NCBI GenBank assembly: GCA_934130165.1
Contig: CAKOXO010000004.1
Location: 51,415-115,414 of the forward strand
Length of the DNA: 64,000 nt
Source: an uncultured Bacilli bacterium
GTDB lineage: Bacteria; Bacillota_I; Bacilli_A; RF39; UBA660
Direction: 5' to 3'
The notes beneath the pieces were generated by a model. The model saw nothing but the letters and a program-made list of their open reading frames with translations, had not been told where the DNA came from and searched no databases. The position numbers and the translations under genes are program-made. This document shows positions 4,627-56,584 of this stretch, in pieces; position 1 is the stretch's first letter; each line of letters begins with the position of its first letter.

Positions 4627-5805
4627 TTAATTTTCATGATAAACTTTCATTTTAATTTTTATATCCTCATCCATTTTTTTCAATACATTTTCTTCTAACT
4701 CTCCATAATCTGAAAACATTCTACTAAACTCCTTAATGTTAAAACTATTAGCCCTATTTTCAAGAAACCTCTCTTTATAAAAATTATATTTATCAGGATC
4801 GCTTTCCTTTAAATAATTGTAGTAAATTGATAATATACCTCCATATCCATAAACCAAATCATTATGTATATCAAGTTCACTTGGTATAATATCTTCATAT
4901 AAAACTATATCTTTATTATTTTTTCTTACATTAGCCATTAATTTGCTTGGGTCTAAGTTTATATACGCATCTCCAACTAATAACTTATCATCTAGATAAC
5001 TTAACACTAATAAATTTTTTAATGATTCTATAATATTATAATAATAATCTTCAGTTAGTGAAGAAGCATCTTCGTTGTAAATATTATTTCTTAAAAGATA
5101 AGATAGAAAATTTTTCTCCATCAGCATAGGAAAAACTTCATTATATATAGATTTTAAATAATATTCATTATCAGAAGTAAAACCTTTAGTATTATTTAAG
5201 TTAGTAAAGTCAATAACATGACCAAGTTCATGAATTATAGATCTCATAGTGATAACTGAACTATCATCATCCATTATTAAAATACAACAAGTATTATTTA
5301 TTGTATTATGAGTTGTATATCCAGCATAACCAAATTCATCATTTAATCCTTTAAAAATCCTTTTTTCTTTTAATAACTTATTAAAAGAATCTGCCAAACC
5401 TTCTTCTGATAGGTAACCCATCATAATATCATACATTTCCTTATAACTTAATTTTACATCCTCACTAATAGAAAATAGTTCTTCTTGCCTTCTACTCATA
5501 TTATAGTATAAATCGTTAACAAACAAGCCATGAAAACTTTTATTATCAATAAAGTTTTTTATATAACTTTCTGAGTCTTTTTTTTGAATTTCATCGGAAA
5601 TTTTAACCTTTTTTTGGTTCGTTTTCTTATATAAATTCATACTCTTAGGAGTTTTACTACTAACATCATTGTATAATTCTATTAAAAGTTCTATTGTAGA
5701 GACAATTCCAACAATTCTATCCCTATCTTTTTCAGTTCTTAATTCCAATTCTAAATTTTTTATTTCTTTTTTTATTACATCTAAATCCCCTGTATATAAG
5801 TTCAT
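4627..5805 (-). CDS. M3-like zinc metallopeptidase (HExxH), short form, paralog 1
   Basis: 'IIHELGHVIDF' is a HExxH motif. The C-terminus ('GGILSIYYNYLKESDPDKYNFYKERF') resembles the oligoendopeptidase F tail. At 392 aa it is shorter than PepF (~600 aa). Confidence 0.5.
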   Translation of the reverse strand: MNLYTGDLDVIKKEIKNLELELRTEKDRDRIVGIVSTIELLIELYNDVSSKTPKSMNLYKKTNQKKVKISDEIQKKDSESYIKNFIDNKSFHGLFVNDLYYNMSRRQEELFSISEDVKLSYKEMYDIMMGYLSEEGLADSFNKLLKEKRIFKGLNDEFGYAGYTTHNTINNTCCILIMDDDSSVITMRSIIHELGHVIDFTNLNNTKGFTSDNEYYLKSIYNEVFPMLMEKNFLSYLLRNNIYNEDASSLTEDYYYNIIESLKNLLVLSYLDDKLLVGDAYINLDPSKLMANVRKNNKDIVLYEDIIPSELDIHNDLVYGYGGILSIYYNYLKESDPDKYNFYKERFLENRANSFNIKEFSRMFSDYGELEENVLKKMDEDIKIKMKVYHEN

Positions 5806-5812
5806 ACTAACA

Positions 5813-6979
5813 CTACTTCCTATAATTTTTATTTTGAACTTTTTGATATTTTGTCATTTCACATCTTACTATTTGCCCTAATTCATCTATGTTGGTTCCT
5901 AACATTTGTAAATGACATTCATTATAATCAGTTGTTCTTATTTGTTTAAACTTATCCATTACTGTATTATATTTATCAGGATCACTCTTTTCAAGATAAG
6001 AAAAATATGTTCCTAATACTCCACCATATGAATATAAAATCTCATCATTTAAATCAAGATTCGATAATAATTCCATATCTTCTATATCAAGACCTTTTTT
6101 TCTATATATTTCAACTAACTCTTCTCTAGAATACTCCATATATATATCATCTTTTAATAAATCATTATCAAGAAGAGATAAAAACATCATTTGATTTAAA
6201 AAAGTAAATGTTGTTAAATAGTTTTTATTTAATTCATTTATAGCGTACTCTTTTTCAATATTATTTTCTATTAAATATTCTAAAAAATCTTTTTCTGCCT
6301 TTATGGCTAGCACTTCTGAATAAATACTGTTATGTTGATATGAGAATGAAGCTACTTTAGAGTTTTTGCTTTCTATATCTCTCATTTCTTTAATATGTTC
6401 TACCTCATGTACTAGTATTGTCATCATTGATTTTTTTAAATTATTTTCACTAAAAGTAACAATATTACCCTTTTTATTATAATAATCCATTATCGTTGAT
6501 GCATAAACATTACTATCTAAAACATCATGGTTATAAAGATTTTTATTTTTTATTAGATCATTTAATATTTTTAAATCATCACCTGACGTATTTAAATAAT
6601 ATTCACTTACTATTTTATATAAATATTCTTCTGTTATTGTAGAACAATCCTCATTAAAGTCTTTTAAACAATCAAGCATTGAAGACATAATACTACTTGA
6701 AAAATCTAAATGATGATCTTTATTTTCTATAAAACTATCACTTCTATCTTTGATTAGTTCACTTGCCCTATCCAAAATACTATTATATTTTTCTGATTGT
6801 TCTATTAATTTAACATCTTCATAACTACAATTAAAATAATCACAATAAAGTTCGATTAATGGTACAATTGAAAATAATAATAAAACACCATCAGTGATAT
6901 CATCACATTTTTGAAACTCTGATAATAGTATATCAAGTTGTTTTTTTATACTATTTTTATCCCCTGTAAATACTTTCAT
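5813..6979 (-). CDS. M3-like zinc metallopeptidase (HExxH), paralog 2
   Basis: 'ILVHEVEHIKE' and 'GGVLGTYFSYLEKSDPDKYNTVMDKF' parallel paralog 1. The start was moved to the ATG at 6977-6979 ('MKVFTGDKNS', compare paralog 1 'MNLYTGDLD'), which has an AGGGGA ribosome-binding site. Confidence 0.5.
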   Translation of the reverse strand: MKVFTGDKNSIKKQLDILLSEFQKCDDITDGVLLLFSIVPLIELYCDYFNCSYEDVKLIEQSEKYNSILDRASELIKDRSDSFIENKDHHLDFSSSIMSSMLDCLKDFNEDCSTITEEYLYKIVSEYYLNTSGDDLKILNDLIKNKNLYNHDVLDSNVYASTIMDYYNKKGNIVTFSENNLKKSMMTILVHEVEHIKEMRDIESKNSKVASFSYQHNSIYSEVLAIKAEKDFLEYLIENNIEKEYAINELNKNYLTTFTFLNQMMFLSLLDNDLLKDDIYMEYSREELVEIYRKKGLDIEDMELLSNLDLNDEILYSYGGVLGTYFSYLEKSDPDKYNTVMDKFKQIRTTDYNECHLQMLGTNIDELGQIVRCEMTKYQKVQNKNYRK

Positions 6980-6981
6980 AA

Positions 6982-7578
6982 CTATCCCCTTTTTGAATAA
7001 ATACATCCACAATAATTTTGTCTATATAAGTTATATTCTTTAGAAAGTTCAATACTTCTTTTATATCCATTATTTTTCTTAAAATCAGAATATAGATAAT
7101 TAGTTTTATATTTTTTATCAAGTTCTTCTCCAATTTCATTAATCCAGTTACTATTTTTATAAGGACTCAATGATAAAGTTGTTGTAAAATAAGAATATCC
7201 AAGCTTTTCTGCTACTCTAGCAGTTTCTTCAAGTCTTAATAAATAGCACTTATAACATCTAGGACCACGTTCTTTTTCTTTTTCTAGGCCTTTAGCCATA
7301 TCAAAAAACTCATTTGGATCATATCTACCATCTATTACTTTTATTTTATACTTTGTTTTGAATTTTTCACAAAATCTATGAATTTCATCTAATCTCTTAT
7401 GATATTCACCTTCATCTGTTATATTAGGGTTATAGTACAAAATACTAATATCAAATATATTCCCAAGGCGTTCTAAGACAGCTGATGAACACGGAGCACA
7501 ACAAGCATGTAATAATAATGTAGGTGCTTTCTCACTTATATTTTCTATTTCTTTTTCCATTAAAAGATTATAATTCAT
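6982..7578 (-). CDS. queH: epoxyqueuosine reductase QueH (DUF208)
   Basis: 'LLLHACCAPCSS' matches the signature Cys cluster, and a C-terminal 'YCGCIYS' is present. 198 aa. Confidence 0.85.
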   Translation of the reverse strand: MNYNLLMEKEIENISEKAPTLLLHACCAPCSSAVLERLGNIFDISILYYNPNITDEGEYHKRLDEIHRFCEKFKTKYKIKVIDGRYDPNEFFDMAKGLEKEKERGPRCYKCYLLRLEETARVAEKLGYSYFTTTLSLSPYKNSNWINEIGEELDKKYKTNYLYSDFKKNNGYKRSIELSKEYNLYRQNYCGCIYSKRG

Positions 7579-9027: not shown

Positions 9028-10380
9028 CTAGCTCATTAATCTTGTTAAAGTATTAGTTAGCTGTTGTTTAAATATTTCTGTTTTTTCATTATCTATATCA
9101 TTTGCAAATGTAGCTTTATCTGTATCTTCTTCTATTGTTGCTCCTTTTTTTATAGAGCTATCAATTACCACTTTTATATCTGCAACTGAAGTTTTTCTTG
9201 ATAGCGCCTTTATAGATAATTTAGTATTTAGTTTATATGCACTATTTTTCTTAACTTCTTTTAGTTTTTGATCTAAACTAGTAGTCATATTAGTATTATC
9301 TACATCATATTTAGCCACTGCTTTATATTGATTTTGTTCTTTAGTAATAGTTATTTTACCATTATTTTGTTGTTTTTCATCATACATGTTAATATTAACT
9401 GTATTATGATTATAGCTAATCTTAAAATTTCGTTTTTCTACATTTTTATCATATAAAGATAACATATCTTCTTTTCTTCCTTTTACATAACAAACTTCTG
9501 AATAATTGGAATCACTACCAAATGACAAACTATATTTTTTTATAATATATGTAATATTATCAGTATAGACTGAAAAAATAATTTTTTCATCTTTAGAGAT
9601 GATCTTTTCATTATTTTTTATTTTTGACTTTTTAAAATCACTATCTATTCCTGTTAAAATTTTATTTGCTTTATCATCTGCTTTTAAATCTTTTAAAACT
9701 GCCTGAGAAATACTAACAAGTCGCCTATTATCAAGTTCTAAAGTTATTTTTTGAACATTAACATTTTTACCATCAATTTCTATTTTATCACCACTTTTAG
9801 TAAAATAACTTTTATCCAAATGGTTTTTAAATGAGGTTAAAGTAAAGTTGTAAATGTAATCAAAATTTTCTCTACTAGTATTATCTTTATTTAGTGATTC
9901 AAAATAATTACTATTACCATTATTAATATAATTATCTAAAAATCCCTTTATATAATAGTATTCAGTATTATTTTCTATTAAATATTTCATTGAAAATAAC
10001 TCACTATCATCAATAGTGCTGTTAAAGTCCATATAAGCTTTTTTATTATTTAAGTCCTGTTTTATTGTTACCTTATTTTTAGTTTTATTTAAGTTATTAA
10101 TCAGGTTTGCTGTCATAGGTTCTTCTTGTAATAATTCACTATTAATATTAAACTTTATATCATTATTCATAGTGAATGTATCAAATTTACTTAGATTATC
10201 ATATTCAGGAAGATAATACTTAGTAATATCTGTTTTTATGTTATTTATTGCCTTTCCTATTATTCTTTTATTATTCTGAAAATATCCTATATATATTCCA
10301 GCACTAATAAGAACTACAGCAACTAAAGTAATGATTATTATCAACTTAAGTTTTGATTTATCATTATTAGTATCACTCAT
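9028..10380 (-). CDS. N-terminally membrane-anchored extracellular protein, function unknown
   Basis: The start was moved to ATG 10378-10380 (GAGGAG ribosome-binding site). One N-terminal transmembrane helix ('LKLIIIITLVAVVLISAGIYIGYF') is followed by a ~420-aa polar domain rich in N, K and D. Confidence 0.5.
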   Translation of the reverse strand: MSDTNNDKSKLKLIIIITLVAVVLISAGIYIGYFQNNKRIIGKAINNIKTDITKYYLPEYDNLSKFDTFTMNNDIKFNINSELLQEEPMTANLINNLNKTKNKVTIKQDLNNKKAYMDFNSTIDDSELFSMKYLIENNTEYYYIKGFLDNYINNGNSNYFESLNKDNTSRENFDYIYNFTLTSFKNHLDKSYFTKSGDKIEIDGKNVNVQKITLELDNRRLVSISQAVLKDLKADDKANKILTGIDSDFKKSKIKNNEKIISKDEKIIFSVYTDNITYIIKKYSLSFGSDSNYSEVCYVKGRKEDMLSLYDKNVEKRNFKISYNHNTVNINMYDEKQQNNGKITITKEQNQYKAVAKYDVDNTNMTTSLDQKLKEVKKNSAYKLNTKLSIKALSRKTSVADIKVVIDSSIKKGATIEEDTDKATFANDIDNEKTEIFKQQLTNTLTRLMS

Positions 10381-10429
10381 AATTTCACTCCTCATTGTAC
10401 TTTAAGTATAAAGAAATAACCTATAAAAG

Positions 10430-11002
10430 TCAATTATCACTATTTAACTTAGTACTATTAATACAAAAATCAATATATTCTTTAGCACTCAAATGAGGTT
10501 TTGGTTTATCAATTTCTCTTATTTCAAAGTAAGAAAGTTCATCATCTTTTATATTTTGCTTTTTTAATTCTTTGTAATTCTCATCGTATTCAAACTTTAA
10601 TAGTTCCCCTAAAGTATCAAATTCATGGATTCCTCTAAGTTCTTCCCATGCATGCTCAAAAAAGCACCATTTATCACCCTTTTTATACACTAAAAATGAA
10701 TGTGCAGAATAATTATTTACATAAGGCAAATTAACCATATGATAAAAAACTTTAATTTCATAATTATTATTAATAAACCATTCTCTTTCAAATTCAGTTT
10801 GATCAAAGCAATTACCTACTCCCGTTTTTAAAATATCTTCAGTAGTAGATAGAATATATTTATCATACCAACAATCATTAAAATTAGTGGTATCTATTTT
10901 ATATATTATTCCATCATTTCCAAGATAACCATAACTAATATTTGTATTCATAAATTTTAATAACTCACCTGGTGTTTTTATATCTTTATATTCCATTTTC
11001 AT
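10430..11002 (-). CDS. cytoplasmic Cys/His protein, possible NlpC/P60-like papain-fold enzyme, paralog B
   Basis: 'MEYKDIKTPGELLKFM', 'VGNCFDQTEFEREWF' and 'HSFLVYKKGDKWCFFEHAWEELRGIH' align with paralog A. Its start overlaps the upstream stop (ATGA). Confidence 0.4.
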   Translation of the reverse strand: MKMEYKDIKTPGELLKFMNTNISYGYLGNDGIIYKIDTTNFNDCWYDKYILSTTEDILKTGVGNCFDQTEFEREWFINNNYEIKVFYHMVNLPYVNNYSAHSFLVYKKGDKWCFFEHAWEELRGIHEFDTLGELLKFEYDENYKELKKQNIKDDELSYFEIREIDKPKPHLSAKEYIDFCINSTKLNSDN

Positions 11003-12744
11003 AATTTTCTCCTACTTTCACTTTCTACTTCTTTATCAAGGGATTCGTAAAACATATATATAATTATTGGAAAAGCTGTAAAAAATGGATATACATACCT
11101 AAGAATTGCTACAGGTGCTAGGATATCAGTACACAAATATAATAGTAATAATAGTAATGGTAAGAATAATTTATAGTTTTTCTTATACAATGTAAAAACT
11201 AAAACAAAAATAAATATCAATACATAAAATGACATATTCATTATTACATTTAAAATAATATTGTTCTGATATTTTGCATCCCTAACTAGTTTATAATAAT
11301 TTTTATATAAATTACTTTTATTACTACAGTTATCGCTTCTAGAAAATGTATTATTGCTTGTATCTAGACAGTTTATTTCAATATATGTTTTCGCATTTTT
11401 ATCTGGCAATTTGTCATTTAAATAGAAAAAACTATATACATTATTTACTATTGAATCAATAAATGTATTAGGATATTTCTTAAGTAAATTAAAATATAGC
11501 TTTAAATACTTAGATTTATCATTTAATAACTCCTCTGTATTAAACTCACTTTTTATGGGATCAGAAATATGAGAATTATACTTTTCTAAGGCATTATTTT
11601 TATATAAACTTTCAATACTTTTTCTTTCTTCTTTGGTTAATTTTTCTTTATTGTATACCCTTCCAAATTGCTGAACTACAAAACTAAACATTTCTATTCT
11701 TGGACCATCTTCTATTTTTAAAACATTGCTTAAAAATAAGTTATATGATTCAAATATAAATATAATAGATGAGAAAACAATAATTAACTTTTTATAATAT
11801 TTTTTTAATACTACTAATACAAATGGTATAAATAATAAAAATGCATAAAACATATTATTTCTAAATGATAATAGTAAAAAACACATAATAATAAATACTA
11901 CTATATTTTTCTTATTATTTAAAAAAATTTCTGTATCTGTAGATAATTCTATTGTCTTAATTAACACTAGGTTAAATAATCCTGAAAATATAATATCCTT
12001 AGTTGTTGTAATTGCTAATACACTATGTGTAGGTAAAAACATATATAATAATAAAAATATTAAATTATATTTTTTAGGAAATTTTTTCTTGTTTAAATAA
12101 ATTAAGGTATATGAGAATATTAAAGTCATAATAATAATTTGAGATATACTATGAATTAATAATCCTATATTGTATGAAGAAAACAGTTTGTTTCCAGTAA
12201 ATATTGTTACGTATAGGAAAAAGGTATGTATAACAGGATGATATTTTGTAACTAGATTAAACTTTAACATCCTAAGTTGGGTACCAGCATCATATGAGAA
12301 ATTACCAGGATAAAAAGCTATTAATATCGGCAAATAAGAAAGAATCATTAATAACATCAATACTAGTAAGCTATACTTTTTTTCAAATAAAAATTCATAA
12401 AATTTATTACTATTAATATCTTCTTTTTTTACTATATTATATAGCTTCCAAGTAACAATAAAGATAGTAGGGGCCAATATTAAAATAGATATATATGTCA
12501 TAATTTTATTTAGTGCTGCTGTATCATTTAAATAACAATTATATCCTACTACTTGTGTCGATGAAAAAATAAGTGAAAATAAGAAACAAAAAATCATTTT
12601 TCTTCTATCATGATTATACAATTTATAAATATAAAAATATTCTCCAATTATTAATACTATTTCCAGTAATAAATTATTAAATATTTTAAAGACTATTACT
12701 GATAAAATAGTAGTTATAAATAATAATATTTTTTTGATATTCAT
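10999..12744 (-). CDS. polytopic membrane protein; uncharacterised family, possibly GT-C-like
   Basis: About 12 transmembrane helices, a ~170-aa soluble insert ('GPRIEMFSFVVQQFGRVYNKEKLTKEERKSIESLY'), then C-terminal transmembrane helices. It is homologous to the gene at 36732-38219 ('KKNIVVFIIMCFLLLSFRNN' ~ 'KNKVLFIIMCFFMVYIRHNG'). The start was moved to ATG 12742-12744, because the track start is a GTG. Confidence 0.5.
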   Translation of the reverse strand: MNIKKILLFITTILSVIVFKIFNNLLLEIVLIIGEYFYIYKLYNHDRRKMIFCFLFSLIFSSTQVVGYNCYLNDTAALNKIMTYISILILAPTIFIVTWKLYNIVKKEDINSNKFYEFLFEKKYSLLVLMLLMILSYLPILIAFYPGNFSYDAGTQLRMLKFNLVTKYHPVIHTFFLYVTIFTGNKLFSSYNIGLLIHSISQIIIMTLIFSYTLIYLNKKKFPKKYNLIFLLLYMFLPTHSVLAITTTKDIIFSGLFNLVLIKTIELSTDTEIFLNNKKNIVVFIIMCFLLLSFRNNMFYAFLLFIPFVLVVLKKYYKKLIIVFSSIIFIFESYNLFLSNVLKIEDGPRIEMFSFVVQQFGRVYNKEKLTKEERKSIESLYKNNALEKYNSHISDPIKSEFNTEELLNDKSKYLKLYFNLLKKYPNTFIDSIVNNVYSFFYLNDKLPDKNAKTYIEINCLDTSNNTFSRSDNCSNKSNLYKNYYKLVRDAKYQNNIILNVIMNMSFYVLIFIFVLVFTLYKKNYKLFLPLLLLLLYLCTDILAPVAILRYVYPFFTAFPIIIYMFYESLDKEVESESRRKL

Positions 12745-12774
12745 AAAATGCACCTACTTTTCTACAAATGTAAC

Positions 12775-29163: not shown

Positions 29164-30996
29164 ATGGTTACATTTGATTATAAAAAAACTCCAATAACGC
29201 AAATTGCAGATTATATTATTATGTATGCTGCAAAAAGTGGCGCTAGTGATATCCATTTTGACCCAAAAGAAAACGGTCTGATGGTACGAATAAGAATCGA
29301 TGGAGACCTACAAGATTATACTTTAATACCTCCAGATTACGAAAGAAATTTAACTACAAGATTAAAATTACTAGCTAATATGAACATCACAGAAAGCAGA
29401 CTTCCTCAAGATGGAGCAATCAAAAGACAATTCGGAAAACTTTACCTAGATATGCGTGCATCTTCTCTTCCTACTAATGAAGGGGAAAAAATAGTTATTC
29501 GTATCTTAGATTATAGTAGAAGCTTACAAGGATTAGAGCATCTTGGTTTTTCGCATACTAATTTTGAAAAATTAAAAAGAATGATTCAAATACCAAATGG
29601 TATCATTTTGGTTACTGGTGCTACTGGTACAGGTAAAAGTACTACTACCTATTCTATTTTACAAGCTTTAAATAAACCTGAAACTAATATTATTACGGTT
29701 GAAGACCCAATAGAAATGAATATTGAAGGAATAAATCAAGTACAAGTAAATAGTGAAATTGGTTTAGACTTTGCTACAGTATTAAGATCTATTTTAAGAC
29801 AGGATCCAAATATTATCCTTATTGGAGAAATTCGTGATTCTGAAACAGCTAAAATTGCAGTACGTGCATCAATAACTGGGCACTTGGTATTATCAACAAT
29901 ACATACAAACAATTCTTTATCTACAATTGAGCGTCTTTTAGATATGGATGTTGAAAGATATCTTTTATCTAGCGCTTTAACTGGAATAATTTCACAACGA
30001 CTTGCCAAGATGTTATGTCCTAAATGTAAAATAGAAAGAGAAGCCACTCCTTATGAGAAAAAAATATTTAAAAATGTTTTAAAAGAAGATATTGAAAAGC
30101 TTTATGACGCTAACCATGATGGTTGTGATTACTGTCATAATGGCTACAAAGGTCGAATTGCTGTTCAAGAGGTTTTAGAGATTGATGATGAAATAAGGGA
30201 TGCCTTAAATGATGAAAAATTAGAAAAAGAAGACTTAAGAGAGATGGTATACACATCTAATGTTATTACCCTACTTCAAGATGGGTTAGAAAAAGTACTA
30301 GAGGGAATAACTAGTTTTGAAGAAATTTACAGGATTATTGAAATAGATTCTGATATTACTGAAAATTATGGTGCTGAGTTAACTGAAGCTAATAAGGAAA
30401 GATTAAAACAAGAAAAGCAAAATAAAATAAAAGAAGAAATCAATTCAGAAGTTACTGATTCTGCTAAATCAATTAACTCTGATGATAAAACTTCATCAGT
30501 AGATGATACTGCAACAATATCAACTAATAGTCAAAATGTAGAATCCATTATTAATAAAAATGAGGAAAAGGCAAATATTATTATCACTCCTCCTATGATT
30601 CCAGCATATACAGATCAAGTTAATTATAGTAATCCATCTAACCCTGAACAAATTTCAGATACAAACTCTTCGACCATTAATATTCCTAATGTCCAAAATA
30701 ATTTTTACAATACTAATAATTCAGAAACTAACCAAGATTTAAATTCTACTGATAAAAACATCAATAGTAATAATGAGAGTGAAAAAATCAATTTTTCACC
30801 ATTAAATACGAATGAGACCTCTGCTTCCGGCCCAACCCTAAGCCTACTAACAGAAGTTCCACAAAATTATAATCAAATTGATAATTCAAACCAAGTTAAT
30901 CTTCAACCAACAATCAGCACTATAAATGATGTAGCTAGTCCAACTCTGATTGAAAATCAAGCAAATTCAGAACCAACATTAATAGAAAATAATTAA
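29164..30996 (+). CDS. type IV pilus / competence ATPase (GspE/PilB family, short ComGA-like form) with a ~230-aa N/S/T/Q-rich C-terminal extension
   Basis: Walker A 'VTGATGTGKSTT', Asp/His boxes, and a tetracysteine 'CPKC...CDYCH'. The ATPase core ends near residue 380 and the remainder is low-complexity. Confidence 0.8.
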   Translation: MVTFDYKKTPITQIADYIIMYAAKSGASDIHFDPKENGLMVRIRIDGDLQDYTLIPPDYERNLTTRLKLLANMNITESRLPQDGAIKRQFGKLYLDMRASSLPTNEGEKIVIRILDYSRSLQGLEHLGFSHTNFEKLKRMIQIPNGIILVTGATGTGKSTTTYSILQALNKPETNIITVEDPIEMNIEGINQVQVNSEIGLDFATVLRSILRQDPNIILIGEIRDSETAKIAVRASITGHLVLSTIHTNNSLSTIERLLDMDVERYLLSSALTGIISQRLAKMLCPKCKIEREATPYEKKIFKNVLKEDIEKLYDANHDGCDYCHNGYKGRIAVQEVLEIDDEIRDALNDEKLEKEDLREMVYTSNVITLLQDGLEKVLEGITSFEEIYRIIEIDSDITENYGAELTEANKERLKQEKQNKIKEEINSEVTDSAKSINSDDKTSSVDDTATISTNSQNVESIINKNEEKANIIITPPMIPAYTDQVNYSNPSNPEQISDTNSSTINIPNVQNNFYNTNNSETNQDLNSTDKNINSNNESEKINFSPLNTNETSASGPTLSLLTEVPQNYNQIDNSNQVNLQPTISTINDVASPTLIENQANSEPTLIENN

Positions 30997-32419: not shown

Positions 32420-33001
32420 TTAGCAACTAATATTATCTTCTTCATCAAAAAAAACTAAAAGGCATTTTCTACTTGCTAAATAATCACACATATGAACAAA
32501 ATTTTGATACTTTGTTTTTGGCTTTTCTAATATCTCGTTTCCATTATAGTCGGTAGTCCATGGTCCCATATGTGTTTTTATTACATCCTCTACTAATTTT
32601 CTTTCTGGATCAGTTAATTCTAAATTATCCTTTTCTTCTTCTACATAATTTGCCATTAAAATAGGATGATCAAATTTAGTATATTTACTTTCTTCTTTAC
32701 CTAGTTTTAATCCATCATGAATTAATAATCCCATAAGCATTAAATCTTTCTCCATAGCAGTATATTTATCTCCAATAGCAGGATCAGATAATAATTCATA
32801 TCCAATTCTAAAAGCAGCTTTGGAATGCCTTAATAATCCACCCTCACCTAAAGCATATTCAGGATGATATTTTCCTGTTGAAGATGCTGGTACTATAAAA
32901 AAATAATCAGGTAAACAATTAATCATATGTATAAGTGATTTTTTTACTCTATCATCCTTTATACAATTTAGTTCCTTTATAAAATATTCTTCATTATTCA
33001 T
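32420..33001 (-). CDS. HD-domain phosphohydrolase
   Basis: 'KYHPEYA...LRHSKAAF' and 'LLIHDGLK' are the H...HD motifs. Confidence 0.6.
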   Translation of the reverse strand: MNNEEYFIKELNCIKDDRVKKSLIHMINCLPDYFFIVPASSTGKYHPEYALGEGGLLRHSKAAFRIGYELLSDPAIGDKYTAMEKDLMLMGLLIHDGLKLGKEESKYTKFDHPILMANYVEEEKDNLELTDPERKLVEDVIKTHMGPWTTDYNGNEILEKPKTKYQNFVHMCDYLASRKCLLVFFDEEDNISC

Positions 33002-34089
33002 ACTTCTTTACTCCTTACAAAATTAATTAATATCTCATTACTTACATATATTTTATCTTCTGGTATATAAATATTTTCATTATTACATATCAAATTATTT
33101 GATACTAAGCTATCGATAGGATAAATATTTTCAATTTTTTCTCCATATTTATTTTCAAAATATTTTTTATTTACTCCTTTTAACAACCTCAAGCCTAATA
33201 TCATTTCATAATCCATTATATCAGATTTTGATAAATTATCATATTCCAAAATATAATTTCCCCTCATATATTTTTTTATACTTCTAGTATTTGTTATTCT
33301 CCTACTACCTATATATGATGATGCACCTAGTCCAAAACCGTAATAGTTTTTATTTTTCCAATAACAAAGATTATGTTTTGATTCATATCCTTTTTTAGAA
33401 AAATTGCTTATTTCATAGTGTTCATAATCTTTTAGTTTATTAATTATTAATTTATACATTTCATAATCTAAATCTTCATCAATGTAATCAGTTTTATTTA
33501 TAGCTAGTTTAGTATGAGGTTCAATTATAAGTGAATATGTTGATATATGCTCTGGTTTTAGTGATAAAACAAAGTCTATATCATTTGATAAATCGTCCAA
33601 GGTTTCATTTGGGATTGCGTACATTAAATCTATATTGATATTATCAAAATCCAAATTCCTACATAAGTCAATTATATATTTAACTCTTTTTTTACTTTCT
33701 TTCCTACCTAATAATGTTAAATTATTTTTATTAACTGTTTCTAGGCCAAAACTTATTCTATTAACTCCATTTTCCTTAAATAATTTCAATTTTTCTAAGG
33801 TTATACTATCAAAGTTACATTCTATTGTATATTCAATTTTTTCATTTTTCTTAAAAATGTTTAAAATATTAAATAGTTTTTTTAATTGCTCTAAAGTTAG
33901 TGATGATGGAGTTCCACCACCAATATATATTGTATCTAACTTTTCATTGTTATAAGTAGATAGTATTTCTTTTTCTAAACTAACTAGGTATTTATCAGTC
34001 AAATTTTCATTGTAAAAAAGTTTACAAAAGTCACAATATGAACAGATATTATTACAAAATGGTATATGAATATAGCAATTATTTGCCAT
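32998..34089 (-). CDS. hemW: radical SAM heme chaperone HemW (HemN-like, oxygen-independent coproporphyrinogen oxidase family)
   Basis: 'CNNICSYCDFC' is the CxxxCxxC motif. 363 aa. It sits downstream of lepA as in Bacillus. Confidence 0.8.
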   Translation of the reverse strand: MANNCYIHIPFCNNICSYCDFCKLFYNENLTDKYLVSLEKEILSTYNNEKLDTIYIGGGTPSSLTLEQLKKLFNILNIFKKNEKIEYTIECNFDSITLEKLKLFKENGVNRISFGLETVNKNNLTLLGRKESKKRVKYIIDLCRNLDFDNINIDLMYAIPNETLDDLSNDIDFVLSLKPEHISTYSLIIEPHTKLAINKTDYIDEDLDYEMYKLIINKLKDYEHYEISNFSKKGYESKHNLCYWKNKNYYGFGLGASSYIGSRRITNTRSIKKYMRGNYILEYDNLSKSDIMDYEMILGLRLLKGVNKKYFENKYGEKIENIYPIDSLVSNNLICNNENIYIPEDKIYVSNEILINFVRSKEV

Positions 34090-34732
34090 GGGGTTTAAAA
34101 CTATTCTCCTTTAGTGGTTGCAATCTAGATTCATTTAATATTTCTTTTGCTATTTTACATTTTTCTTTGTCTATTTTTGAAAGTCTAGTAGTTAAATTTC
34201 TTTGAACTACATTCCAACTCAAGCCTTGTACATTTCCTATTTCTTCTATTGTATTACCTACTGATAAATAATTATAAGATGTAAGAACCTGTTCTATTAC
34301 TCTTTTGTTATTAGTTGAAAACGATTTATTTTCCATTAAGACATCAAACACTGCCTTATAATGTTTTATTGAAATATTAGGTAATCGTTTCTGAATATAA
34401 TCATGAATCGTTGTTTTACCAATTCCAAAGACTTTCGCTGTTTCTCTTACTGAACTTTTATTTTCTATAATATAATTTGCGATATCGATATAAAGTTCAT
34501 TATCTTTGGTTACAAGTGGCAAATTATCATCTAATGTATCGTAATATTTTTTAATATTATCTCTATGTTCAGAAACCTTACTATTTAATTTATTATCTAG
34601 TGTACAATAATTATCTAGTACTTCTACTACTTTATTTTTATCTATACATAAGTACTCAGCTAACTCATCATAAGTAAACCAATTATTTAAATATTCTTCA
34701 ATTATGCATTCTTTAGTAATATAATCTTCCAT
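34079..34732 (-). CDS. DNA-binding protein with tandem SpoIIID-like helix-turn-helix repeats
   Basis: Residues ~80-150 'NYIIENKSSVRETAKVFGIGKTTIHDYIQKRLPNISIKHYKAVFDVLMENKSF' match recalled SpoIIID 'KYIVETKKTVRVIAKEFGVSKSTVHKDLTERLPEINPDLANEVKEILDYHKSI'. A second similar unit is 'LSVGNTIEEIGNVQGLSWNVVQRNLTTRLSKIDKEKCKIAKEILNE'. The ~75-aa N-terminal region looks like another helix-turn-helix. Confidence 0.55.
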   Translation of the reverse strand: MEDYITKECIIEEYLNNWFTYDELAEYLCIDKNKVVEVLDNYCTLDNKLNSKVSEHRDNIKKYYDTLDDNLPLVTKDNELYIDIANYIIENKSSVRETAKVFGIGKTTIHDYIQKRLPNISIKHYKAVFDVLMENKSFSTNNKRVIEQVLTSYNYLSVGNTIEEIGNVQGLSWNVVQRNLTTRLSKIDKEKCKIAKEILNESRLQPLKENSFKPHGK

Positions 34733-34740
34733 ATTTCCTC

Positions 34741-36537
34741 CTACTTTTCATTAGTTGATAGTATTGATAAAAATGCTTCTTGTGGTACTTCAACACTACC
34801 TATTTGTTTCATTCGTTTTTTACCAGCTTTTTGTTTTTCTAATAATTTCTTTTTACGAGTAACGTCTCCACCATAACATTTTGCTAAAACATTTTTTCTC
34901 AATGCTTTAATATCAGTTCTAGCAATTATATGAGTACCAATTGCTGCTTGAATTGGGACTTCAAACATTTGACGAGGAATAATTTCTTTTAGTTTTTCAA
35001 CTACTATCTTTCCTCTTTGATATGCAAAATCCTTATGAACTATTACACTTAAAGCATCTACTATATCACCATTTAATAAAATATCCATCTTTACTAGATT
35101 ACTTTCTCTATAACCTATTAATTCATAATCAAATGAAGCATAACCTTTAGTATAACTTTTTAATTTATCAAAGAAATCATATACTATTTCTGACAAAGGA
35201 ATTTCATAGTAAATAGTTACTCTATCTTCATCTAGGTAATCCATATTAATAAAAGTTCCTCTCTTATCTTGGCATAACTCCATAATAGGACCTATATACT
35301 CTTTTGGTGAAAAGATACTAGTTTTGACATAAGGTTCAAATGTTTTTGAAATAACACTCCTATCTGGCATTTTAGTTGGAGCATCTACTATTAACTTGGT
35401 TCTATCAGTAAGTAGCACTTCATATATAACAGAAGGAGATGTTGCAATTAAATCTATTCCAAATTCTCTTTCTATTCTTTCTTCTATAATCTCCATATGA
35501 AGTAGTCCTAAAAAGCCACATCTAAATCCAAACCCTAAAGCTTTCGATGTTTCAGGTTCATAGGTTAATGAAGCATCATTCAATTTTAATTTCTCTAATG
35601 CCTCTCTTAGATCTTCAAATTTATTAGACTCTATTGGATATAGTCCACAATAAACCATTGGTTTCATCTCTTTATATCCCGGTAGAGCTACTTTTGCTGG
35701 ATTATCTTTAAGGGTTATTGTATCCCCTACTTTAACACTTTCAATACTCTTAATTGAGGCATATAAATAACCAACTTCACCAGCTGATAAGCTTTCTACT
35801 TCTTTTTCTTTTGGAGTATCAATACTTAAACCAACTACTTCATAACTAGAATTAGTCTCCATCATTAGAAAAGTATCCCCTACTTTTATTTTCCCATCCA
35901 TTACTCTGATACTTGTAATAACCCCTCTATATGGATCAAATACACTATCAAATATCAAAGCTTTTAACTCTTTGTTTGGATCTCCTGATGGAGCTGGAAT
36001 ATATTTAACAATTGCATCTAGTAAAGAATCAATTCCCTCTCCTGTTTTTGCACTAGTTAGAATTATTTCTTCTCTATCAAATCCTATATTTTCTAATTCT
36101 TCTATTACTTTATCCGGATCTGCATTTGGTAAATCTATCTTATTAATTACTGGAATAACTTTTAGGTTATTATCAAGAGCAAGATATAAGTTAGCAAGAG
36201 TTTGGGCTTCTATTCCTTGAGATGCATCCACAACCAAAAGAGCACCTTCACATGCAGCCAAACTTCTTGAAACCTCATATGAAAAATCAACATGTCCAGG
36301 GGTATCTATTAAATGAAGATAGTATTCAGAGTTGTTATGTTTATATTTTATCTGCACAGCATTTAATTTAATTGTTATACCACGTTCCCTTTCAAGCTCC
36401 ATATCATCTAAAATCTGTTCTTTTAACTCCCTTTTAGAAATTGCACCAGTACGTTCTAAGATTCTATCTGCTAACGTACTTTTACCATGATCAATGTGAG
36501 CAATTATACAAAAATTTCTAATATTTTCTTGTTTCAT
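34741..36537 (-). CDS. lepA: elongation factor 4 (LepA)
   Basis: '[20 protein letters not shown]', 'DTPGHVDF', 598 aa. Confidence 0.95.
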
Positions 36538-36575
36538 AGGATGCCTCCAAATCTATAATTTATTATAACAAAAAA

Positions 36576-36598
36576 CTTGGATTACTCCAAGCTTCTTC
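36576..36598 (-). terminator. rho-independent terminator downstream of the membrane-protein gene
   Basis: Minus-strand hairpin CTTGGA-GTAA-TCCAAG followed by TTTTTT. It lies just upstream of the lepA TATAAT-like element and GGAGG ribosome-binding site. Confidence 0.45.
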
Positions 36599-36731: not shown

Positions 36732-38219
36732 TTAATCTTTTTTTATTTGGTTATTATATAATGCATAAACAATTAATGGATAAGTGCAAGTTATAGAAGG
36801 ATAGGCAAAACGCATTTCATCGCCAGTTACAAGGCAGGATACTATGATTACATTAGATATTACTAATATGTAAGGTATAAATCTTCTTATACCATCAATA
36901 CCCTTTCTTATAATTAAATATATTGAAAATAATATTAAGAAAAGAGCACTTCCTAAATCTATAAATAAAAATTTTAATGGAGTTTTAAAAATAAAATTTG
37001 TATAATAGTAAACCCCATTATTATTTTCTCTTGAATTATACTGAAAACAATAAAAACTTTTATAATGGTCTATTCTCCAATATATACTAGTAATTGCCAA
37101 ATAGTTTTTTAAAGATAATTTAGGATTTTTTACCGCTAAATCTAGCCATATTCTTACTACATCTAATGAGATACTTTTTAACTTTTTTAAATTATCTGGG
37201 CAGTTAAACTTTATTTCATTAAAATACATATATTTACTATAATTTCCATTAAAACACTCTTTTTTAAAGATACTATATATTTTATCTTGATATTCTTTTT
37301 TAAATCCCTTTCCATGTTCTTCTATATATCTAATTTGATTCAATGGAACTCCTAACATTTCAGCTGTACCAATATTAGGTTTTACATTTAAAAAATTATA
37401 TATAGGGCCGGTAATTATTACTCTAGCTGTTATAAATATAATAAAAAATGATACATAGAATTTCCTATATTTTTTATAAAAAATAATGAGTAATATCATC
37501 ATTAATAAAAAATTAGCAATACCATTATGTCTTATATATACCATAAAAAAGCACATAATAATAAATAATACTTTATTTTTAGTTTTAGAAATCCAATCAC
37601 CTTTAGTTATCACAATTTCAATTAAAAACATAGTTCCTACTAAAATAGTATAAGAAAACGGCACATCTTTTAATAGGCTTGACGTCATAACAAGAAAACT
37701 AGGATTTAAAACTATAAGTAACAGTATAATTATAGTCATACCTATATTTAGAAAGTATTTTCTTAAAAAATAACTTAAATAAATTAAACATACATATATA
37801 TATAATCCTTGAAATATTTTGCAAGAATAAAAACTATAATAAAAAATGGATGGCAATTTAACAAAGATAATTGTATATAAAAATGGATGCCAGTCACTAT
37901 AAATTCCTCTAGCTAAAACATTCCATATACCAGTAAAATCTGTAGGATAGCAATTATTATTTGCTATTGAAAAAACAATGGCAATAACTATTATATATGT
38001 GTATATTGCAAACTCTATTAATCTTATTTTTTTACTAGATTTAAATTTTATTTTATCAAGAAACTTTTGTATAAATAAAAATAAAATAAAAATTATAATT
38101 GTCCATGGAATAAATGAAAAATATCTAATTTCTCTATCATAACTAATACAAAATACAAAATATATAGCTAATAGAAGAAGTAATATATTGTTTAAATTAA
38201 ATATTTTTTTTAGTTTCAT
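36732..38219 (-). CDS. polytopic membrane protein, paralog of the gene at 10999-12744
   Basis: About 12 transmembrane helices. Shared blocks are 'LLKDVPFSYTIL', 'KNKVLFIIMCFFMVYIRHNG' and 'FYKKYRKF'. It is inserted between the yqxA-like gene and lepA. Confidence 0.5.
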   Translation of the reverse strand: MKLKKIFNLNNILLLLLAIYFVFCISYDREIRYFSFIPWTIIIFILFLFIQKFLDKIKFKSSKKIRLIEFAIYTYIIVIAIVFSIANNNCYPTDFTGIWNVLARGIYSDWHPFLYTIIFVKLPSIFYYSFYSCKIFQGLYIYVCLIYLSYFLRKYFLNIGMTIIILLLIVLNPSFLVMTSSLLKDVPFSYTILVGTMFLIEIVITKGDWISKTKNKVLFIIMCFFMVYIRHNGIANFLLMMILLIIFYKKYRKFYVSFFIIFITARVIITGPIYNFLNVKPNIGTAEMLGVPLNQIRYIEEHGKGFKKEYQDKIYSIFKKECFNGNYSKYMYFNEIKFNCPDNLKKLKSISLDVVRIWLDLAVKNPKLSLKNYLAITSIYWRIDHYKSFYCFQYNSRENNNGVYYYTNFIFKTPLKFLFIDLGSALFLILFSIYLIIRKGIDGIRRFIPYILVISNVIIVSCLVTGDEMRFAYPSITCTYPLIVYALYNNQIKKD

Positions 38220-55681: not shown

Positions 55682-56584
55682 TTAATCTTCCTTTAAGCTA
55701 ACAAAATAATAATTTTCCTTATCATCTTTCTTAAATGTATATTTATATTCAGAGAATTCTTTATAATTGGATTCATTTATTCTGAAATTATTTGCTTCAT
55801 CTTCTGATACATTTTCACGATATATTTCCTTTTCATTTAAGTCCTTATATATATTTACATTATTAGTTTCTGATGCATATATTGATGACCCATAACTAAC
55901 ATATACATAAACTTCATCGTCTTTAACAGTATATTTATTTATATAGGCATATGCACTATTTGGATCACTACCACCGCATTGTGGTTCAATGTAATAATAA
56001 GTATTAGTATCACTATCATAAATATATCCAAAACAAACATTGAAACTTTTATGATTAACTGTGCCATCTCCAAAATAATTTTTATATTCATCTTCTACAA
56101 CTGATGAGGATATTTTCTTAGCAGAACCCATTCCATTTACTGATACAAATTGTTTAATGTCACTATTTTTAAGATCAGTACTATCTATAGCTTGAAATTT
56201 ATTAATACCAAACAACTCATCTAATACAATTTTTAATTTTAAGTCATCATTTAAGTTATTAAATATATCACCCATTAAACTTTCATCATTTCTAAAATTA
56301 TACATTCCTATTTTTGCCATGTCATAATCATCATTTTGTACTGGACTATAAGTATTCATATAATAAATTTTTTTATTCAAATCATTTATTATTTCCTGAT
56401 TAGTTAAATCTTTTTCTATCTCATCTTTACTACTTTTTACAACTTGTTTTCTTGGCTCAGTTTTTTTTATAATTATTCCCTTATCATAACAAATATATCC
56501 TATTAATCCCAATATAATTAGTATTAATACTATTATTAATATAACTAATCCCACACTTTTCTTTTTATTTTTAACTTCCATCAT
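55682..56584 (-). CDS. N-anchored extracellular protein, unknown
   Basis: Transmembrane helix 'VGLVILIIVLILIILGLIGYICY' and a polar domain. Confidence 0.4.
   Translation of the reverse strand: MMEVKNKKKSVGLVILIIVLILIILGLIGYICYDKGIIIKKTEPRKQVVKSSKDEIEKDLTNQEIINDLNKKIYYMNTYSPVQNDDYDMAKIGMYNFRNDESLMGDIFNNLNDDLKLKIVLDELFGINKFQAIDSTDLKNSDIKQFVSVNGMGSAKKISSSVVEDEYKNYFGDGTVNHKSFNVCFGYIYDSDTNTYYYIEPQCGGSDPNSAYAYINKYTVKDDEVYVYVSYGSSIYASETNNVNIYKDLNEKEIYRENVSEDEANNFRINESNYKEFSEYKYTFKKDDKENYYFVSLKED

Follow-up and report, generated by a model that had tools for sequence, protein, structure and literature searches.

A gene within a 64,000-nucleotide stretch of DNA from an uncultured Bacilli bacterium (GenBank assembly GCA_934130165.1, contig CAKOXO010000004.1, positions 51,415 to 115,414 of the forward strand; hereafter, the window) encodes an internally duplicated relative of the sporulation regulator SpoIIID. 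The gene, labeled X, is the open reading frame (ORF) at 34079..34732 on the minus strand (stop codon included), which is taken from the ORF list with an ATG start and lies between lepA and hemW; residue numbers count along its 217-amino-acid product. SpoIIID is the textbook single-domain regulator of the mother-cell program and, unusually, binds DNA as a monomer through a helix-turn-helix (HTH) and a basic tail. X consists of three modules: an acidic N-terminal module (N), a middle unit (M) that is canonical-like, and a C-terminal unit (C) that is a diverged second copy of the SpoIIID HTH unit. We favor the reading, which we hold to be fairly probable, that X is a lineage-specific SpoIIID paralogue which has become a transcription factor, carrying two HTHs and a regulatory acidic domain on one chain.

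The M unit (residues 76-142; 34307..34507, minus strand) is, as judged from Pfam, PDB and hhalign, an HTH unit like that of canonical SpoIIID but lacking the basic RGG tail. Residues 81-137 matched the Pfam SpoIIID family PF12116 with an E value of 2.8e-19 and 69.5 bits (gathering score 27), and residues 79-139 aligned with residues 6-66 of SpoIIID in PDB entry 2l0k (E 3e-10), the only solved relative. When aligned by hhalign to a profile built from 52 canonical SpoIIID-size proteins, M reached a probability of 99.9% and an E value of 1e-31. A first-pass annotation of the sequence had described a clear SpoIIID unit at residues ~80-150; the unit stands, and its borders shift to ~76-142.

The C unit (residues 143-209; 34106..34306, minus strand) was recognized by hhalign as a diverged second SpoIIID-type HTH unit. 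Alone, this piece matched PF12116 with an E value of 5.8e-4 and 20.4 bits. Because this score lies under the gathering score of 27, we used profile-profile comparison of family sub-alignments. C matched the canonical profile with probabilities of 97-98% and E values of 3e-11 to 3e-13, and M and C matched each other over 50 columns (probabilities 94-96%, E 1e-7 to 3e-9). The second unit that had been proposed at the C terminus is thus recovered, and similarity to SpoIIID is significant for both M and C rather than for one unit with unrelated flanks. Judged from sequence, X is an internal duplication, with two tandem SpoIIID-type units, and the duplication is an old one.

The linker between the two units, ENKSFSTNNK, is short and highly conserved. 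The recognition helix of C, RNVVQRNLTTRL, hardly varies and, together with a motif in N, makes up the most invariant stretches of the family. Across 79 sequences, R178, N179, R183 and L184 are invariant in the C unit, and polar or basic residues of the recognition helices are conserved in both units (K106 and T108 in M; N174, Q177, R178, N179 and R183 in C). Using the alignment of these 79 sequences, AlphaFold predicted X as twelve helices, four per module with the same length pattern, at a predicted local distance difference test score (pLDDT) of 89.5 and a predicted template modeling score (pTM) of 0.83. A Foldseek search of PDB found no fold match to X beyond a single unit.

The N module (residues 1-72; 34517..34732, minus strand) was delimited by conservation, AlphaFold and charge as an acidic four-helix HTH-like domain without a Pfam family; it matched zero Pfam or NCBIfam families. 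The family is best conserved at a motif within N, CIIEEYLNNWFTYEELAxYLCI, and the invariant residues of N among the 79 sequences are I10, E13, L15, N17, F19, E23, L24, Y27 and L28. Modeled alone, N reached a pLDDT of 91.7, with helices at residues 7-16, 21-28, 32-45 and 47-69, the same helix pattern as in M and C. The family means for N are a net charge of -6.0 and an isoelectric point (pI) of 4.8, and the would-be recognition region carries -3.8.

When 30 N domains were scanned against Pfam, we obtained a few weak generic HTH matches and no match to SpoIIID (0/30). Foldseek comparison of N with PDB gave nothing significant, and the top matches were nearly all HTH domains. The best query-normalized template modeling (TM) score, 0.60 over 71 columns and likewise not significant, was to SpoIIID 2l0k. 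The commonest top matches were small tetrahelical HTHs of the LuxR/GerE type (GerE 1fse, LiaR, DegU and VpsT; query-normalized TM-scores 0.45-0.53, E values of at least 0.88), from which N differs in its strongly acidic would-be recognition helix and its own invariant motif. The earlier suggestion that the N-terminal region is HTH-like therefore agrees with the predicted fold.

Some N domains also weakly match sigma-70 regions 3 and 4. We considered and rejected a sigma factor mimic: the matches to regions 3 and 4 are weak generic HTH cross-matches, and region 2 is absent. Short matches that could have been stand-alone N-domain proteins (P0178, P0180, P0190 and P0207) proved to be frameshifted or truncated fragments.

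The similarity of N to SpoIIID-type units is only weak. With hhalign, N matched C at E values of 3e-4 to 7e-3, always in register, and matched the canonical profile at 0.004-0.016, whereas its comparison with a single canonical protein, that of locus L024, gave 0.58; N and M gave no hhalign signal. A hidden Markov model (HMM) of N found weak in-register matches to C-type and canonical units over the HTH and the next helix. These matches are only suggestive, and N is possibly a third, very diverged SpoIIID unit.

Comparison with canonical SpoIIID brings out both kinship and divergence. SpoIIID of Bacillus subtilis (PDB 2L0K, PF12116, TIGR02844) is a mother-cell transcription factor of 93 amino acids, and its canonical relatives have 81-94, whereas X has 217 in three modules. 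M is up to 49% identical to canonical SpoIIID-size proteins, C is a second, diverged version of this unit, and SpoIIID and X have in common the motif [ST]V..[DN]L..RL..I......V..[IV]L and the pattern of their helices. Like SpoIIID, X is found in a spore-former.

The canonical proteins of 81-94 amino acids end in a basic ERHIRGG.ATK region (conserved R-H-x-R-G-G-x-A-T-K), and this tail is absent after both M and C of X. According to a passage of PMC3789822 that cites Himes et al. (2010), the C-terminal basic region of SpoIIID is a second region essential for DNA binding. The 52 SpoIIID-size proteins average a net charge of +7.2 and a pI of 9.7, compared with a pI of 6.1 for X; the family mean net charges of M and C are -0.3 and +3.9. 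Against the TIGR02844 equivalog model, X scored 75.1 bits, under the cut-off of 111.5. X is probably not a SpoIIID orthologue, and we would not read it as "the SpoIIID" of this organism.

Close to X stand unnamed two-unit SpoIIID-like proteins of 146-160 amino acids (for example P0210, P0339, P0335, P0202 and P0174), all of them predictions from metagenomes or metagenome-assembled genomes. Like X, they have collinear units, occupy the lepA-hemW slot (loci L022-L026) and come from low-GC (23-32%) genomes; unlike X, they lack the N module, and some carry a C-terminal ...RD..GRF.K tail. M matched unit 1 of these proteins with an E value of 6e-27 and C matched unit 2 with 1.6e-24, while the cross-comparisons (M with unit 2, C with unit 1) gave 1e-10 to 1e-12, weaker by at least ten orders of magnitude. 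M is thus orthologous to unit 1 and C to unit 2. Since this correspondence is one-to-one, the duplication is older than the addition of N.

The gene order is nusA-infB-...-lepA-X160-hemW-HD-thyX-tmk-...-hrcA-grpE-dnaK in L022 and spoIIP-small ORF-lepA-X155-192 aa-hemW in L023, and L025 likewise has a two-unit gene between lepA and hemW. Two further loci carry a canonical spoIIID between lepA and the two-unit gene, with hemW downstream: L024 (5680-5946; 88 amino acids, tail NRHIRGGEATKKKY) and L026 (353-625; 90 amino acids, tail ERHIRGGEAIK). In both, the two-unit gene, unlike X, appears to have its own sigma-A-type promoter with the canonical spoIIID immediately upstream. L026 has a terminator and a TGTTATAAT element between the two genes, and L024 has TTGCAT...TGCTATAAT, a match to the sigma-A-type consensus, ahead of the two-unit gene. 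The slot between lepA and hemW is therefore the place of SpoIIID-type genes in this group of Bacilli, and the two-unit gene is a paralogue found alongside canonical spoIIID. In B. subtilis, spoIIID is presumably not near lepA. Because the N module of X sits where the canonical spoIIID sits in L024 and L026, an origin of N by fusion is conceivable, if unproven.

That arrangement bears on a different reading, in which X is the lineage's own SpoIIID in extended form, maybe a fusion of canonical spoIIID with a two-unit gene, and runs the sigma-E to sigma-K step. No family other than SpoIIID matches X significantly, and P0308, a member of a distant subfamily described below, carries the NCBI name "sporulation transcriptional regulator SpoIIID". 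The source organism is a spore-former, since the window also codes for gpr (Peptidase_A25), spoIIP and a GerXA-like (gerA-type) germination protein. The canonical genes of L024 and L026, of 88-90 amino acids, lie exactly at the place of the N module, and neither the 64-kb window nor the loci of its own lineage (L001-L016) contained a canonical spoIIID. Cultured spore-forming Erysipelotrichaceae lack spoIIID (10.1101/2022.02.25.481979), so that its loss has a precedent among spore-formers of that family, whose name one related genome bears.

We nonetheless think it unlikely that X is the lineage's SpoIIID. X falls short of the equivalog cut-off, lacks the RGG tail and is acidic overall, and its M and C units are orthologous to those of a paralogue that coexists with canonical spoIIID. 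The similarity between N and SpoIIID is weak, both to the canonical profile and to the L024 protein, and the "recognition" region of N is acidic. X also shares an operon with the housekeeping gene lepA, behind a sigma-A-type -10 element, and the absence of the canonical gene from this genome is drawn from 64 kb of it.

A more elaborate form of the idea, which we regard as decidedly unlikely, holds that N is the remodeled remnant of a spoIIID that fused with a two-unit gene, that no free SpoIIID is left, that the mother-cell step has moved to X, a three-module protein produced from the housekeeping lepA operon, and that the SpoIIID-type HTH is a concatenable module. Chains of two to eight such units, described below, would on this account resemble zinc-finger or Myb arrays.

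The genomic setting of X is that of a compact operon. The lepA gene (elongation factor 4; 34741..36537, minus strand) is the first gene and matched TIGR01393 with 994 bits (cut-off 533.9). It is followed by X, by hemW (radical-SAM haem chaperone; 32998..34089, minus strand; TIGR00539, 307 bits, cut-off 205.4) and by a gene for an HD-domain protein (32420..33001, minus strand), named from a weak Pfam HD match and from its synteny with X in most related loci. These scores bear out the first-pass placement of the 217-amino-acid ORF between lepA and hemW.

All four genes have the same orientation and are tightly packed. The spacer between lepA and X is 8 nucleotides and contains AGGAGG, read from the sequence as the ribosome-binding site of X (34737..34742, minus strand); it overlaps the lepA stop codon, with 4 nucleotides between it and the ATG of X. 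The hemW ATG lies 11 nucleotides inside the 3′ end of X (an 11-nucleotide overlap), and hemW and the HD gene overlap by 4 nucleotides.

Upstream of lepA, a terminator-like hairpin with a U-run, detected by RNA folding at the end of the DUF6020 gene (36570..36597, minus strand), is followed by TGTTATAAT and then by GGAGG. The hairpin has a folding energy of -13.9 kcal/mol and a z score of -5.0, and none of 200 shuffled sequences was equally stable; it probably sets the lepA-X-hemW operon apart from the spoIIP cluster. By consensus match, TGTTATAAT (36562..36570, minus strand; 25 nucleotides upstream of the lepA ATG) is a promoter-like extended -10 element of sigma-A type and, we infer, the putative promoter of the operon. 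X is thus predicted to be translationally coupled to its operon neighbors, with a sigma-A-type extended -10 ahead of the operon, a setting that differs from the sigma-E-dependent spoIIID unit.

A generic promoter and terminator scan was uninformative in this AT-rich DNA, with 34 sites against 41.6 expected, and a check for structured RNA in or near X gave zero Rfam matches in the window. The GC content is ~25% throughout, the same in X as in its flanks, without local anomaly. As to the genes further upstream, the DUF6020 gene encodes a membrane protein of 495 amino acids (36732-38219, minus strand) and, as an insertion, parts the spoIIP/small-ORF pair from lepA. L023 and L024 have no such gene at this place, and there spoIIP and the small ORF lead straight on to lepA.

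Under the reading we favor, the two recognition helices of one chain would be placed on neighboring stretches of DNA, so that a monomer could read a longer, two-part site. The second HTH would take over the second DNA contact, which SpoIIID makes with its basic tail. N, because its would-be recognition region is too acidic, would not bind DNA and may serve as a regulatory or protein-interaction module, acting through autoinhibition, contact with a partner or RNA polymerase, or oligomerization. X would be transcribed with lepA from the sigma-A-type promoter and, for that reason, would be present in growing cells and not in the mother cell only.

The least secure step concerns targets. Its ancestry, its restriction to spore-formers and the neighboring genes across the family (spoIIP, gpr, cotE and canonical spoIIID) suggest that X may act on sporulation-related genes. 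The DNA-binding domain of Tc3 transposase (1u78), paired domains and Myb R2R3 offer an analogy of mechanism only, as monomers with two small linked HTHs that read two adjacent DNA segments. Although 1u78 was among the non-significant Foldseek matches (E 3.6), it has no detectable sequence relationship to X, and the unit type, linker and context differ.

Several points weigh against this model. The role given to N is drawn purely from charge and conservation, and the orientation of the modules relative to one another comes from the AlphaFold model alone, at the pTM given above. The promoter calls are consensus matches in an AT-rich genome of 25% GC, and the search for canonical spoIIID covered the 64-kb window and the fetched loci. 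Finally, X is slightly acidic overall and M is near neutral across the family, so that high-affinity DNA binding is not guaranteed.

The same charges are the starting point for another explanation, that X is an architectural or nucleoid-associated protein, or an adaptor whose HTHs have been re-used for contacts with proteins such as RNA polymerase or partners of LepA or HemW. X is acidic to neutral, its very acidic N is the most conserved module, and its operon looks constitutive. Relatives with two to eight units suggest multivalent binding, and some N domains weakly match sigma-70 regions 3 and 4. However, the recognition-helix residues of M and especially of C are nearly invariant and polar or basic, as fits base-specific contacts. 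C is basic (+3.9), and SpoIIID, the nearest relative of known structure, binds DNA in a sequence-specific way. The link between X and LepA or HemW is one of gene order only, and the distant subfamily lies outside that locus. We consider an architectural or adaptor role very unlikely.

That X is a real gene is secure. Among 5.8 billion proteins searched, we obtained 144 homologues at E ≤0.001; nearly all of those listed are full length, at 209-222 amino acids, and all three modules are conserved across them. None of these first 144 carries a name. The order lepA-X-hemW is kept in 12 species-level genomes, down to 50% identity, and the HD gene comes next in all but one. These genomes are labeled as uncultured Tenericutes, Bacilli, Erysipelotrichaceae or Bacillota and come from gut samples, and the GC content was 23-32% in every fetched locus. 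At least 22 independent contigs encode exactly this X protein, and within the species X shows 0-1 nucleotide changes and zero amino-acid changes.

The chance that X is an artefact of assembly or annotation, or a decaying fusion of two genes, is negligible on these counts. Full-length homologues and the synteny in 12 species-level genomes exclude in particular the fusion or frameshift artefact that the first-pass annotation had named as a possible error. We also rejected a horizontal or phage origin: the GC content of X is that of its flanks, and no phage counterpart of the architecture was found. Searches of PHROGs and of phages with tblastn got no further than single SpoIIID units, with a coverage of 25-27% of X, and BFVD gave zero significant full-length matches.

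The uniformity of X within the species is a separate observation. Compared with the window, L002 and L003 differ at 0-1 of 654 nucleotides in X, 25 of 1797 in lepA, 4-22 of 1092 in hemW and 4-25 of 582 in the HD gene, and in L003 a 625-nucleotide stretch free of differences covers X. Across species, the conservation of X is not unusual. The low within-species diversity could be due to chance, recombination or constraint on synonymous sites. Two loci have extra sequence between lepA and X: an unannotated ORF in L007 (892-1290; start MKYSRLLKQAF...) and ~275 bp in L016 (5730-5990). Neither stretch gave a SpoIIID match by tblastn.

X belongs to a much wider superfamily. When 1.84 billion cluster representatives were searched exhaustively with an HMM, 1676 matched, 103 of them at E ≤1e-10. 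Among the best 150 of the 1676 matches, to which the class and unit counts apply, four classes could be told apart: N+M+C proteins of ~200-228 amino acids; proteins of 140-175 amino acids with the M+C part only; longer proteins, matched in as many as six stretches; and canonical proteins of ~90 amino acids. With a unit HMM, 40 proteins had one unit, 74 had two, 13 three, eight four and five five, two had six, and one each had seven and eight. The N+M+C subfamily comprises ~19 clusters at 50% identity, and X fits it, with the acidic N motif IIEEYLNNWFTYEELAxYL followed by M and C.

Some N+M+C proteins are extended. Variants of 324-332 amino acids (P0108, P0109 and P0325) have, after C, a linker rich in proline and glutamine and one more weak SpoIIID-like HTH unit (E 7.7e-4 alone), and L012 (6001-6990) and L014 (4450-5420) have ~390 bp extra before hemW, which fits this form.

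A distant N+M+C subfamily, 35-45% identical to X, lies outside the lepA-hemW slot (L018:5418-7705, L019, L020:2068-4138 and L021), directly upstream of a polysaccharide deacetylase gene (pda) and cotE. In L018 and L019, the gene stands behind a terminator and a promoter-like element, TTGACA-N16-TATAAT, that matches the sigma-A-type consensus perfectly. We did not take the adjacency to cotE as evidence of direct SpoIIID-like control.

At the far end of the range are long arrays of five to eight tandem units: P0167 (337 amino acids), P0169 (383), P0194 (369), P0192 (450), P0206 (413), P0195 (565) and P0201 (599). The five repeats of P0167 are near-identical, and most of their differences appear, by eye, to fall where the recognition helix begins, as though every repeat had a specificity of its own. 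Proteins with five to eight units may, to go by their repeats, be modular DNA-reading arrays.

A few other features of the window were recorded. A T2SSE-type ATPase (type IV pilus or competence) is encoded at 29164-30996 on the plus strand, and its ~200 C-terminal residues are of low complexity and rich in N, S, T and Q. Its counterpart in L003 has 719 amino acids, compared with 610 in the window, so that the length of the tail varies. Four large ORFs of 392-584 amino acids, all on the minus strand (4627-5805, 5813-7012, 9028-10395 and 10999-12753), have no NCBIfam match at E ≤1e-5. The exact products of the last two are not on record in the assembly collection, and the region may be strain-variable. 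A 300-amino-acid ORF at 55682-56584 (minus strand) lies after ftsA-ftsZ and before dnaG-sigA and has zero Pfam or NCBIfam matches; in Bacillus, spoIIGA-sigE-sigG come after ftsZ.

A search of the full-text literature found no published description of tandem or duplicated SpoIIID proteins, and none of SpoIIID-type proteins with two to eight units. The early impression that an internally duplicated SpoIIID is undescribed thus holds as far as papers go, but X is not a one-off: it belongs to a superfamily with two to eight units per chain. We regard X as an undescribed architecture inside the known SpoIIID-superfamily HTH factors, and as part of a sizeable family in uncultured low-GC gut Bacilli. 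The automatic naming of at least one family member as "SpoIIID" probably overstates what is known.

In this family, the basic tail of SpoIIID has given way to a second HTH and elsewhere to up to seven more, an acidic domain has been added, and the gene has become fixed at lepA-hemW across a group of uncultured, low-GC gut Bacilli that form spores. Interest would rise if the genome proved to be without canonical spoIIID, or if the multi-unit arrays proved to be modular DNA readers. If X replaces SpoIIID, it would bear on how lineages without spoIIID run the sigma-E to sigma-K transition. If the model of a two-part site is true, the family would serve as a natural experiment on the extension of specificity in monomeric HTH factors.

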